64,000 nucleotides of DNA from assembly GCF_963921235.1 (NCBI RefSeq), contig NC_086108.1, positions 10,168,001-10,232,000 on the forward strand, written 5' to 3'. This document shows, in pieces, positions 55,931 through 62,569 of this stretch. The notes beneath the pieces are model-generated. The model had not been told where the DNA came from. It ran no database searches and was given only the letters and a program-made list of their open reading frames with translations. How positions within the stretch are numbered: the stretch's first letter is position 1; each line of letters begins with the position of its first letter. The position numbers and the translations under genes were made by a program. The DNA is from Mobula hypostoma (taxonomy: Eukaryota).

Positions 55931-56119
55931 AACCCATGAACACTACCTCACTGCTTATTTTAACGCAACTTATTTAATTTAACTAATATATATGTACATA
56001 CTTTGTGTATACTTGCTGTAATTCAGTTTTTATTATTAAGTGTAGCAATGTACTTCTACCTATAACAACAAATTTCATGACATATGCTAGTGATATTAAA
56101 CTTCCGGTCAAGATGGCGC

Positions 56120-56346
56120 TGAAGCACCTTCAATAACTCCAAAAGACTGAGGTTTGGTAAAATACTGAAAGGCTTTTATTCGCTGTACAATACGACTTCC
56201 ACGGTGAGTGTCTGCCCCCGGACTGAGGGGGAGGGGCAAGGCGAACACCTTTATACAGGACTCTGTGGGAGGAGCCACAGGGGCAGTCAGCAGAGGGGTG
56301 TGTCCAGACAGGTAACCGAGTTACAACATATATATGGTTTACCACA
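56120..56346 (-). repeat. Gypsy 3' LTR
   Basis: TG...CA; about 7 substitutions plus a 2-bp indel versus the 5' LTR. Confidence 0.95.
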
Positions 56347-56412
56347 TTCACCCCTCCTTTTTTTAAAAGAGTCCCGCGGGCTGAAGTGACTGACAATATT
56401 TACAAGAAGTAT

Positions 56413-59300
56413 ATTTACAGGTTAAGTCTATCAGGCGGTCGAGTCCGTCGCTGTGATCTACGTAGCACCGGCGATGGCGGTTGTGCTGGCTCCGGCCTGA
56501 CTTCAGGTTTCAGCACGTTAGGCATTGTTAATCCCTCGTGCGTGTGCGTCGCGCCGGGTATGGGAGTGTCGTGTGGTGTCTGTATAGGGTTTGGGGTGCA
56601 CAGTGTGTCGTAGGTACATACATTGGTGGGTACGGGGTCAATAGTCACCACGGAGTGTTCAGGGTAGGGGCCCGGAGCTCCTGCGGGTGCCAGGTCGCAG
56701 ATGGAGACCGTGTCCTCTCACCCATCAGGTAAAACCACGTAGGCATACTGGGGGTTCGCATGAAGTAAGTGAACCCTCTCGACTATCCGGGAGTATTTAT
56801 GGCTCCTCGCATGTTTCCAGAGCAGCACTGACCCCGGGGACGTCAGCCAAGATGGTAGGGTGGTTCCAGTGGTCCATTTTCTGGGAAAAGAAAAGAGCCG
56901 CTCATGAGGGGTGGCATTGGTGGCTGTGCATAACAGGGAGCGGATGGAGTGGAGTGCCTCGGGAAGGACCTCCTGCCAGCGGGAGACCGGCAGTCCCTTT
57001 GACCTGAGGGCTAAGAGTGTGGCTTTCCACACCATGGCATTCTCCTTCTCCACCTGTCCATTCCCCCGGGGATTATAGCTCGTGGTCCTACTGATTGCAA
57101 TTCCCCTAGCCAGTAGATATTGGCGCAGCTCGTCACTCGTAAACGAGGACCCTCTGTCACTGTGGATATAGCATGGGTATCCGAACAGAGTGAAGAGCTT
57201 GTGCAGGGCTTTTATAACTGACGTGGTAGTGGTATCGGAGTAGAGGATGGCGAAGGGGAACCACGAGTACTCGTCAATTACGTTAAGAAAGTACACATTG
57301 CGGTCGGTGGAGGGAAGGGGGCCCTTAAAATCAACACTCAGTCGCTCAAAGGGGCGGGTGGCCTTGATGAGTGGTGCCTTTTCGGGTCGGTAGAAGTGTG
57401 GTTTGCACTCTGCGCAGACTTGGCAGTCCCTGGTCATCGTCTTGATCTCCTCAAGGGAGTAAGGCAGGTTCTGGGCTTTCACGAAGTGGAAAAGCCGGGT
57501 GACTCCCGGGTGGCAAAGGTCTACATGTAGGGCATATAGCCGGTCGATCTGCGCACTGGCGCATGTTCCCCGGGATAGGGCATTGGAGGGCTCGTTGAGC
57601 TTCCCAGGCCTGTACATGATGTCATAGTTGTAGGTGGAGAGTTCGATTCTCCACCTCAGAATTTTATCACTTTTGATTTTGCTCTGCTGCTGATTATTAA
57701 ACATGAATGCGACTGAGTGCTGGTCAGTTAGCAGGGTGAACCTTTTGCCGGCAAGATAGTGCCTCCAGTGCCTTATAGCTTCCACTATGGCCTGGGCCTC
57801 TTTCTCTACCACAGAGTGCCGAATTTCAGGGCCTTGAAGGGTACGGGAGAAGAACGCCACCGGTCTTCCTGCCTGGTTGAGGGTAGCAGCCAGCGCAAAG
57901 TCGGAGGCGTCACTCTCTACTTGGAAGGGAATGGCCTCATCTACCGCATGCATTGCTGCTTTGGCAATGTCCCCTTTTATGCGGCTGAAGGCCGCGCGGG
58001 CCTCGGCAGGGAGGGGGTGGGCCTTGTCTGCATACTTAGAGACCCATTGGGCGTAATATGAAAAGAAGCCCAGGCACCTTTTGAGGGCTCTGAGGGTATT
58101 GGGAGGAGGGAGTTCCAACAAGGGGCGCATACAGTCGGGGTCAGGGCCAATGACTCCATTCTCCACGACACACCCAAGGATAGCAAGTCGGGTGGTTCTG
58201 AACACACACTTGTCCTTGTTATAGGTGAGATTGAAAGCTTTGGCCGCTTGGAGAAATTTTTGGAGGTTGTTGTCGTGATCCTGCTGGTCGTGACCGCAGA
58301 TGGTGATGTTATCCAGATATGGGAACGTTGCTTCAGTTGGCACTGGTCCACCATCCGGTCCATTGCCCTCTGGAAGACAGATACACCATTCATGACACCA
58401 AAGGGGACGCGCAGGAACTGATAAAGCCTGCCATCCGCCTCGAAGGTGGTGTACGGGTGGTCCTCCCGGCGGATGGGGAGCTGATGGTAAGCGGATTTTA
58501 GGTCTATGGTCGAGTACACCTTGCACTGTGCTATCTGATTGACCATATCCGCGATGCGGGGTAGAGGGTATGCGTCGAGCTGCGTGAACCTATTGGTCTG
58601 GCTATAGTCCACGACCATCCTATTCTTCTCCCCGTTCCGAACAACCACCACCTGCGCCCTCCAAGGACTTGTGCTTGCCTCAATGACCCCCTCCCTGAGC
58701 AGCCGCTGCACCTCTGACTTAATGAAAGCTCTGTCCCCCGCGCTGTACCTCCTGCTTTTAGTTGTCACGGGTTTACAGTCGGGGGTCAGGTTGGCGAACA
58801 GCGGTGGGGGAGGGATCCTGAGGGTGGAGAGGCCGCAAGTGGTGTCGGTAGTGTGGCAGTTGGCATGGTGTTGGGTGGGATGCGCGGGTCGGTGTGTGTG
58901 TGTGTGGTCAGTAGCGGGGTACGTGACATATCTCTACAAAACTGGTGATTTATGACAGTAATTGGCGGGAGGGGCCCATCATACTCCATTGTCACGCTTT
59001 TCAGGTGGCTCTGGAAGTCCAACCCCAACAGCACAGGGGCACACAGTTGAGGCAAGACCAGTAACGTAAAGTCCCGATACTCTGTGCCCTGCACCACTAG
59101 TGTCGCTACACAACCCCCCGGATGTCTGTTGTATGCGATCTGGAGGCCATGGTGACCCTCTGACTTACCGGCCGTATCATGAGTCCACAATGCTGCACCG
59201 TGGCCGGGTGGATAAAACTCTCCGTGCTGCCTGTGTCAAACAGGCAGCTTGTCCTGTGCCCCTCCACCAGGATGTCCATCATTGACCTTGCAAGCTGGTG
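56413..59300 (-). pseudogene. Gypsy pol (PR-RT-RNaseH-IN), frameshifted
   Basis: LFDTGS, IDLKSAYHQL, VPFGV, YLDN, ESDASD, TDQHS, H-HPG-C--C, SVDFKGP, HSDRGSSF, GNGQVE. Confidence 0.95.
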
Positions 59301-59404
59301 GGGAGCGCTTTGGTCGAGGGTCACGGAAGCCAGGGTGGGGTCGCTGTCTTGGTCCGGCGTGGTGGGGTGCCCCGTGAGCACCCGTTGGTCGTAGGCGGTG
59401 CCGA

Positions 59405-59642
59405 CCAAGATGGCCGCCCCATGTCTCGCATGTGGTGGTGGCGTGCAGGGAAGATGGCGGCAGGCAAGATGGCGACCCCCACGTCTCGCACGTGGTGGCA
59501 GTGTGCAGGGGAGATGGCGATCCCCATGTCTCGCACGTGGTGGCAGTGTGCAGGGAAGATGGCGGCAGGGAAGATGGCGATCCCCATGTCTCGCACGTGG
59601 TGGCAATGTGCAGGGAAGATGGCGACCCCCACGTCTCGCACA
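59405..59642. repeat. Coding minisatellite in the gag-protease linker
   Basis: About five 45-60 bp units reading (T)ATTCETWGSPSSL. Confidence 0.85.
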
Positions 59643-59649
59643 CAGCGCT

Positions 59650-60402
59650 GCTCAATCGCGCTCGCGGTTTTGACTTACAGACCTTGGCGAAGTGGCCCTT
59701 CTTTCTGCAGCTGGAGCAGGTAGCTTGTCGGGCCGGGCAGCGTTTCCGGGGGGGCTTCTCCAGTCTGCAGAAGTAGCACTTCGCGGACTCACGACTGGCG
59801 GCAGCCGAGGTCGATTCGCCGGCAGGTTGCGGGGTCTGCGGCACGCATGAGGCCGTCGGGGGATCGTGTGCCTGGAGAGCCTCGGAGTTATGCAGAGCGG
59901 CCTCCAACGTATCAGCCAGCTCCATCGCTGAACTTAGGGTAAGATTGGCTTTTTCCAGCAGCCGCTGGTGCACGTACACTGACCTGGTCCCCGTAACGAA
60001 GGCGTCTCTCACTAGGAGTTCTGCATGCTGCGCCGCCGTCAGCTCCTGGCAATTGCAGGCCCGCACGAGTGTCTATAGGGCCCGGACAAACTCAGCACTC
60101 GATTCCCCGGGGTGTTGTTGCCATGTTGCTAAATGGTGCCGAGCATAGAAGCTGTTTATCGGCCGCAGGTATTGTCTTTTGAGTGCGTTCTTTGCGCCGT
60201 CGTAGTTCGGCTGGTCTCTGATCAGCGAATAGACCCGTGAACTGACTCTGGAGAGTAGAACTCTGCACTTCGCTACGGGGTCGGTCGCTTTAATCTCCTC
60301 TGGGTACGCTTCGAAGCAGGCCAGCCAGAGTTCGAAAGCATTTCCAGCTTCAGGTGTCTGGAGATCCAGGTCTAATTTGTCTGATCTCAGTGCATGTTCC
60401 AT
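59650..60402 (-). pseudogene. Gypsy gag with zinc knuckles, disrupted
   Basis: MEHALRSDKLDLD...WLACFEAY; LVRDAFVTG; CYFC..CPARQATCSSCRKKGHFAKVC. Confidence 0.88.
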
Positions 60403-60428
60403 GCTTTAAGATGTACAGCGAATAAAAT

Positions 60429-60657
60429 TGAAGCACCTTCAATAAATTCAAAAGACTGAGGCTTGGTAAAATACTGAAAGGCTTTTATTCGCTGTACAAT
60501 ACGACCTCCACAGTGAGTGTCTGCCCCCGGACTGAGGGGGAGGGGCAAGGCGAATACCTTTATACAGGACTCTGTGGGAGGAGCCACAGGGGCAGTCAGC
60601 AGAGGGGTGTGTCCAGACAGGTAACCCAGTTACAACATATATACATGGTTTACCACA
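60429..60657 (-). repeat. Gypsy 5' LTR
   Basis: TG...CA; TATAAA and AATAAA on the minus strand. Confidence 0.95.
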
Positions 60658-62569
60658 GGCGCCAGAGTACAATGCTCCCTTGATTAACATCTTTCAGAGA
60701 GCCCACGAAACTGCCTTTTTTACTTCTTTTACATCTGTTTTTTCACCTTCAATGTGTTTCTGGGACTGTTAGAGCCTGCAATTTACAGTTCGGAGATCCA
60801 CTGAGCTTTGCTGTCGCTGAGAAGATTCCAGGAAGCGAGTGTGTACTCGGGCGGCCTTGAGACAAAGGAAGTTTGAGATGGGGCGTGAGCCGATGTTCGA
60901 TTCCACTTCGCCATTTAAAGTGTCCATTAATCACGGATTAAGGTGTCAAGGAAAATTGAGATGTCGAGGTGAATTTTGGAAGGCGAGCGTGAGTTCAGTG
61001 TCGACTGCCTTCCTTTTGATCGCTGCATTACTGCCATAGGGCAACAGATTCCACGCGATAAGTCAGTGATGATAAACATGACACTATTCTGATCCCTACA
61101 TTTGCAGATGGCCTGTTTTGTGTCAATCCGAGGAAGCCAGGCCCTTTCCGTTCCCATTTGGAAAAGTCAGTTCGGGCTGAAATGTGGCAGTGGGGTCCAG
61201 GCCCAGAGCTCATCGGCGTGACAGGCCCAGGCCCTCGAGTGAGGAATGACCAGTGTTTGGATAATTTAAACTCGGGGCAGACGGATTGCAAAGGCAGGGT
61301 GTCCGAACCAGAGGCAAGAGTTAGGCTGGTTCTGCTTGTGATGTTTATTCTGCTCTTTGCTGCACTGCAGCTGAGGCTGTGGGCCTGCCTCAGCTACTCC
61401 AGGCTTCGTGTTGCTGTTGGTTGCTGTCATTTTCATGATTTATGTTTTCTTTCTCTCTCTGCACACTGGGTGTTTCTTGATCTTTTTTTGATTGGGTTCT
61501 TTTGGATTTCTTGTTTTGTGGCTGATGAAGTTCAAGGGTAAATAGTGTATACATACATTGATGACCTTTGAACTTTGAATTATTAACTTTGAAATTATAC
61601 CACCTCCTGGTCTCAGGAGCCTACCTCATAAAGGGAGAGCTCCCTCAAGCTGGGAGTTTGGCTCTGATTTCTCAGGAGGAGACAGTTACCTCCTGGTGCT
61701 GGGAGATTTTCTCAGAAATGGAGAGCTCCCCCAGTCCGATTCCTCAGGAGGAGACCAATATGCGCACCCGCCCCCCGCCCCAGCGTTGTGTATTGAAGGT
61801 GGGGAATGAGGGAAGTGTTCTCAGGGACAAGACTCCAGCTGTTGAGAGAAAGGTTAGGTCCCGTCGAGGAGGGCGCTGGGTCCCACATCCTTGCAATCAC
61901 ACCTCCCAATCATAAGTGAGATGTTGACTGTTGTCAGCAGAGCCAGTGTTCCTATCTTGGCACGTTAGCTACAGTGACACATATTGATTCAACACTTTCC
62001 TTCTGCTGAGACCAGTAATAATTTTAGACCTGCCAAAACGCGACTGAAACGAAATGTTCAACTGAGAAACCAATTAACCCTTTGATTTCTGGCACTGGTA
62101 GGACCTGATTGGCAGGGTAAATGCTATTTATGCCTCTCTTCGTTTCTTTACACAATCTCTGTTTACCTGCCCTGGAGGTTGGGAGAGTGCTACCTTCTCG
62201 AGCCGCTGCAGTTCACATGGTCGAAGTCCTCCCACGGTGCTGTTCAGGAGAGTGCCGGGGACGATGTCGAGATAGTGTAGTGATTAGCGTAGCATTTCAC
62301 AGCGCCAATGACCTGGGTTTAATTCCTGCCACTGTCTGTAAGGATCTTTTATATTCTCCACAGGGCAGTGTGTATTTAATATTGCAGTAATATTTGAATA
62401 ATTTTCTATATATATTGCTTAATTAAGCATTCTTGTTCATTTAAATACTCACTGTTTGGGTTATATGTAAAAATACATGAATTGCATACATCATCAGAAT
62501 AACATGTGACACATGTGCGCCTCGCTTAAAGCAAACTCGAAGTCAGTCCTGCATTTTGGACTCCACGTA

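Follow-up and report, generated by a model that had tools for sequence, protein, structure and literature searches.

A chromodomain-less Ty3/Gypsy group of animals probably primes reverse transcription with a stretch of its own LTR

We analysed a window of 64,000 nucleotides from Mobula hypostoma (NC_086108.1, positions 10,168,001 to 10,232,000) and found on its minus strand a 4.5-kb Gypsy element whose primer-binding position lacks TGG and is perfectly complementary to a stretch inside its own LTR. Corresponding sites, each complementary to the LTR of its own element, were recovered in most of the distant relatives tested. By analogy with Tf1, we conclude that this group likely primes reverse transcription in cis with its own LTR stretch and not with a tRNA (probability roughly three in four). 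Counted along the window, the element comprises the following features:

60658..60662, minus strand: target-site duplication, 5' copy (5 bp), identical to the 5 bases after the 3' LTR
60429..60657, minus strand: 5' LTR, 229 nt, TG..CA, with 220 of 227 aligned bases matching the 3' LTR
60559..60564, minus strand: TATA-like box, TATAAA, a motif of putative function
60529..60535, minus strand: initiator-like motif, predicted start at about 60533, 31 nt past the TATA box
60483..60498, minus strand: predicted self-primer, 16 nt, perfect complement of 60427-60412 and backed by covariation, predicted 3' end at 60483
60489-60484, minus strand: AATAAA of the 5' LTR, within the self-primer stretch
60433..60482, minus strand: hairpin predicted by folding, beginning directly at the primer 3' end
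60412..60427, minus strand: primer-binding position, no TGG, one base (60428, A) past the 5' LTR
56415..60402, minus strand: gag-pol frame with gag, protease, RT (YLDN), RNase H and integrase, no chromodomain (sequence and Pfam)
56347..56366, minus strand: polypurine tract region, before the 3' LTR
56120..56346, minus strand: 3' LTR, 227 nt, whose AATAAA (56180-56175) has no downstream partner
56115..56119, minus strand: target-site duplication, 3' copy, the same 5 bases as the 5' copy

The element has the hallmarks of Ty3/Gypsy: LTRs bounded by TG and CA, a polypurine tract, a target duplication and, as identified by Pfam, the Gypsy arrangement of protease, RT, RNase H and integrase; its nearest solved relative is Ty3. 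The window copy is decayed, its gag-pol frame being disrupted by stops and frameshifts; the family counts 1,255 candidates in the host genome (40 of them scored), and in some of these copies the frame runs on for about 1,300 residues without interruption. The ends of the 5' LTR are also marked by loose contig ends from related animals. Among named proteins the nearest are those of rays, and Pol relatives at 52-61% were recovered from cnidarians, Trichinella, insects and a cephalopod as well as from numerous metagenome contigs. The gag zinc knuckle is separated from the protease by a 45-nt tandem repeat (window 59417-59626), the length of which differs among copies.

A preliminary description, made from the window alone, had proposed that the element lacks a TGG-type site and carries a perfect 16-bp complement inside its LTR, downstream of the TATA box and overlapping the poly(A) signal. 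All of this was borne out: the site starts one base after the CA of the 5' LTR without TGG, the 16 nt of minus strand 60427-60412 reverse-complement 60498-60483 without a mismatch (the flanking base on each side no longer pairing), and AATAAA lies inside the paired stretch, downstream of TATAAA. When the LTR was shuffled 20,000 times preserving dinucleotides, no complement to the 25 nt past the LTR was longer than 12 nt (0 reached 13 nt). For the 146-nt leader the predicted fold has -44.4 kcal/mol (z = -3.9), a value equalled by none of 200 shuffles.

Priming by a host tRNA, a tRNA half or some other small RNA, with the LTR match being secondary, is very unlikely, even though some Ty1/copia lineages are primed by tRNA halves, as described in PMC6317226. 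The host tRNA set that we compared consists of 88 sequences of four isotypes (Lys, Tyr, Leu and Cys), among which none complements the site: the best match is 9 nt long, and matches anchored at the tRNA 3' end reach at most 3 nt. The comparison with tRNA 3' ends, which had been suggested as a check on the proposal, gave no refuting tRNA within this set. The best tRNA duplex is predicted at -12.3 kcal/mol, whereas the self duplex reaches -21.4 kcal/mol, TGG is absent from the site, and the site tracks the LTR of each family, something impossible for a fixed host RNA.

Within the Mobula hypostoma genome, all 30 close copies retain the site with 11-16 perfect pairs, and the survey of sister subfamilies covered 50 new loci, parsed or tried, besides these 30 copies (8 were not parsed). 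In one sister subfamily, position 11 of the LTR stretch, counted from the primer 3' end, carries T in place of A; of the 67 junctions recovered (counted by eye), 65 were readable, and 64 of these show the matching T>A change in the primer-binding site. The combination of LTR A and site T occurs in at least 559 junctions of the host genome (446+58+55), the mismatched combination of LTR A and site A in 3. The change at position 11 is not of the CpG type, and paired changes were also seen in sister subfamilies at positions 8, 9 and 15; at the distal position 15 pairing fails in several copies, a mismatch being tolerated there. Since the 64 copies share one inherited change, they are not independent events, and the covariation in this genome amounts to about four events, not dozens. 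An apparent covariation at CpG positions within the family (12 double versus 36 and 58 single changes, Fisher p = 0.012) was rejected and taken as decay after insertion: nine of the 12 double-change copies had a second LTR, in which the change was shared in 2, absent in 6 and unread in 1, and the proportion is no higher than in the non-compensatory class, where it was shared in 2 of the 6 copies with a second LTR (7 in total). Further families in the host genome were sought with a loose motif; with 34 matches compared with 18 in the control, this search was likewise dropped.

Scans of metagenome and MAG contigs yielded 76 loci, of which 37 had no gag start, two had too little upstream DNA and 37 could be tested; presumably, the true hosts of these relatives are animals that the samples contained. 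Among the 37 tested relatives, 31 form 11 or more perfect pairs with the LTR of the same element, and in 26 of these 31 the pairing begins exactly one base after CA. The remaining six fall below 11 nt (L115, 7; L119, 5; L135, 10; L139, 5; L145, 5; L151, 10). In the wrap-around contigs L110, L111 and L153 the site was located at the contig tails, and L153, the deepest branch with an RT 44% identical, also carries the self-complementarity. In a cross-match of 12 families, each site matched its own LTR over 12-18 nt and the LTR of another family over 10 nt at most. An alignment of 18 rows (hand-chosen family representatives, with the register optimised per row and three rows being near kin) has 213 of 216 positions paired, different pair types occurring at positions 4-12, and at positions 6-12 the count of 123 of 126 compares with a mean of 66 and a maximum of 91 after permutation. 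One relative (L122:1243-1372) has a primer ending in AGA and a site with TCT, a paired change in an otherwise near-fixed A-run. Several of the contigs come from bacterial MAGs (L148-L158) and probably represent eukaryotic contamination; among viral contigs, 21 pattern matches contained no relative of the element.

Loss of the complementarity in related elements, named beforehand as one of the results that would speak against self-priming, was therefore not the pattern in most of the tested relatives, and the compensatory changes that had been called for were found both in the genome and across distant families. Hardly credible, then, is the view that the match arose by chance or by a one-off inverted duplication and is functionless. 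Within the family, the CpG changes do not covary by inheritance, as this view would have it; the shuffles, however, never produced such a match, and pairing is kept with changed letters down to the deepest branch, so that cross-family covariation refutes it. Covariation points to a pairing that is selected or copied and is by itself no proof of priming. Taken together with the fixed register one base past the LTR and the missing TGG, the compensatory changes nevertheless support the proposal that the family self-primes, and the clade-wide feature most likely serves self-priming in a widespread group of compact, chromodomain-less animal Gypsy elements having an LTR-complementary primer site.

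Covariation is also blind to whether the pairing takes place in cis or in trans. The same primer might act in trans, as the R copy at the 3' end, from the second packaged RNA, or as a trimmed short transcript ending at the poly(A) site of the 5' LTR, and the 3' LTR indeed has the same 16 nt and the start of the hairpin. We regard this as unlikely, because the cis fold of the leader is strongly favoured (z = -3.9, as given above), the paired arms lie just 31-87 nt apart in all 18 rows, and Tf1 primes in cis (PMC7175516).

The geometry of the duplex bears on its use. Its proximal edge is sharp, usually AAA followed by RCC, and its distal edge is ragged. A hairpin beginning at RCC is predicted in 15 of the 18 rows (second base paired, P>0.8) and not in the other three, so that the primer duplex together with one stacked hairpin is predicted in 15 of the 18. 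A primer requires such a sharp edge at one base's distance from the LTR end; masking alone would not. The rival reading, that the duplex is there for hiding the 5' poly(A) signal or for regulating gag translation and that another primer is used, can point to AATAAA lying inside the duplex here, to a duplex that is possible only at the 5' LTR, and to a site that ends 0-30 nt upstream of the gag ATG. It is improbable all the same: a start exactly one base after CA would not be required, a different primer would be shut out by the duplex and lacks a site to bind, and in 15 of the 31 complementary relatives AATAAA or ATTAAA is absent from the paired stretch, some of them having their poly(A) signal elsewhere. 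Because the signal lies in the paired stretch of only 16 of the 31 relatives, masking is not the rule. The suggestion in the preliminary description that the same duplex masks the 5' poly(A) signal is thus plausible for the window family, and does not belong to the conserved core; masking is likely a side benefit of the duplex.

Under self-priming, which we prefer, the leader RNA would fold back in cis, its LTR stretch pairing with the site as in Tf1. The RNase H of the element would then cut at the junction of duplex and hairpin, after the A-run and before RCC, i.e., after 60483, and the freed 3' end would be extended across U5. A poly(A) site typically lies 10-30 nt after AATAAA, and the stretch from the cut up to that site could be used for the first strand transfer. 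In the window family and about half of the relatives the primer would include the poly(A) signal, so that the duplex would hide the 5' copy and leave the 3' copy free. In the window copy the TATA box and the initiator-like motif, both sequence motifs only, lie 66 nt and 37 nt upstream of the duplex and place the start about 35 nt before it; the primer would therefore be internal, at a predicted position some 35 nt inside the transcript. The prediction of an internal primer draws mainly on the window family, since TATA-like boxes precede the primer in only 3 of 12 LTRs. Eight sequencing runs consist of contigs only, and the contigs revealed neither a start nor a cleavage or poly(A) end. In a single contig of run X7, 103 nt that span the whole duplex (window 60411-60513) are missing, without GT-AG ends, which may be a deletion or a template switch at the hairpin base.

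Gypsy self-priming has been described for the Tf1/sushi chromoviruses (PMC7175516 and bioRxiv 2022.12.06.519325), and the mechanism suggested here is a variant of that known one. In Tf1, the RNA's initial 11 bases pair with the site and are cut free by RNase H (PMC7175516), and a structure of three duplexes is common to the chromodomain-bearing Tf1/sushi group (bioRxiv 2022.12.06.519325). Tf1 and Tf2 of S. pombe, Tj1 of S. japonicus and the Tf1/sushi group resemble the window group in being Ty3/Gypsy elements without a tRNA site and with an LTR-complementary site directly after the 5' LTR, and the extra helices beside the primer duplex of Tf1/sushi elements have a counterpart in the hairpin predicted here (for the Tf1/sushi side, PMC7175516, PMC4600332 and bioRxiv 2022.12.06.519325). 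However, the primer of Tf1 is located at the 5' end of its RNA, whereas that of the window family is predicted about 35 nt in, and the Tf1/sushi group has a chromodomain, which the window group lacks. The window element would thus work like Tf1/sushi, yet it is not a member, having no chromodomain and forming a separate branch.

A search for chromodomains at E<=0.01 was negative in all 13 proteins, including the 100-aa tail of the window copy (some of the others are incomplete), and none appeared among the 120 homologues listed; with that Pfam family, 150 scored copies are detected in other parts of the host genome. In a tree of RT-RNase H (21 of 73 extracted segments used, besides a quick tree of 48 rows), 14 self-complementary rows separated from five chromodomain rows at 100/99, the tree being unrooted, carrying a long-branch warning and including no named Tf1/sushi element; the RT of the window copy is 26-29% identical to the chromodomain rows. 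The trees demonstrate separation from chromoviruses, not independent origin. Of the placement among self-primed Gypsy groups that had been suggested as a check, the split from the chromodomain rows of the host genome was obtained. Of 14 chromodomain copies fetched from the host genome, 10 had an LTR pair. Among the chromodomain copies, L324, L328 and L330-L332 have no tRNA-type start at the LTR end and show a decayed self-complementarity of 7-10 nt; in the decayed copies L330-L332 the match, of 7-10 nt and remote from the LTR end, follows a TATA-like motif by about 30 nt, which is the layout of Tf1, the matches being weak. These copies likely represent a Tf1/sushi-type group in the same genome.

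Self-priming predicted from complementarity between LTR and primer-binding site is also reported for the plant elements TAR (Houba, Osr-1) and Tcn1 (PMC6317226); TAR belongs to Ty1/copia and Tcn1 to the chromoviruses, in contrast to the window group, which is an animal Gypsy group with the order RT-RNase H-integrase. On the evidence of TAR, self-priming arose outside chromoviruses. Skipper of dictyostelids has likewise lost the TGG site and has a pyrimidine-rich stretch after its LTR; it differs in having a chromodomain and in that no complementary stretch was found in its LTRs, as stated in PMC5006619. The clades Mag A/B/C, CsRN1, Cigr-1, Tor and MolGy1-16 are, like the window group, non-chromovirus animal Gypsy elements (PMC6238403), and the window group is probably one of them or close to one. 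Labelled clade reference sequences were absent from the supplementary files inspected (four of five of PMC6238403 and 11 of 14 of PMC8556966), and the literature covered yielded no description of self-priming in the Mag, CsRN1, Cigr-1, Tor or MolGy clades.

We found no published description of self-priming in non-chromovirus animal Gypsy elements in the literature covered, Repbase, subscription journals and some supplements lying outside the search. Some Repbase entries reportedly mention self-priming palindromes. At a little under even odds, we tentatively consider that the group represents a second origin of self-priming in Gypsy, animal-wide, undescribed and independent of Tf1/sushi, in which the primer would be cut inside R at a conserved AAA|RCC junction of duplex and hairpin, and in many families one helix would both hide the 5' poly(A) signal and supply the primer. 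If so, tRNA-free priming would be widespread among animals and would have evolved repeatedly, the group having relatives in rays, sharks, cnidarians, nematodes, insects and a cephalopod; these elements might lie beyond control by tRNA fragments at the primer site, and it would be explained why annotation tools based on primer-binding sites miss or misfile such elements. A precise cut site is predicted, and the duplex suggests a simple way for a short LTR to ignore its 5' poly(A) signal.

Elsewhere in the window, two pairs of repeats are 97% identical (2422-2721/20134-20433 and 22920-23162/36655-36897), and many copies of short interspersed repeats are scattered across its whole length.
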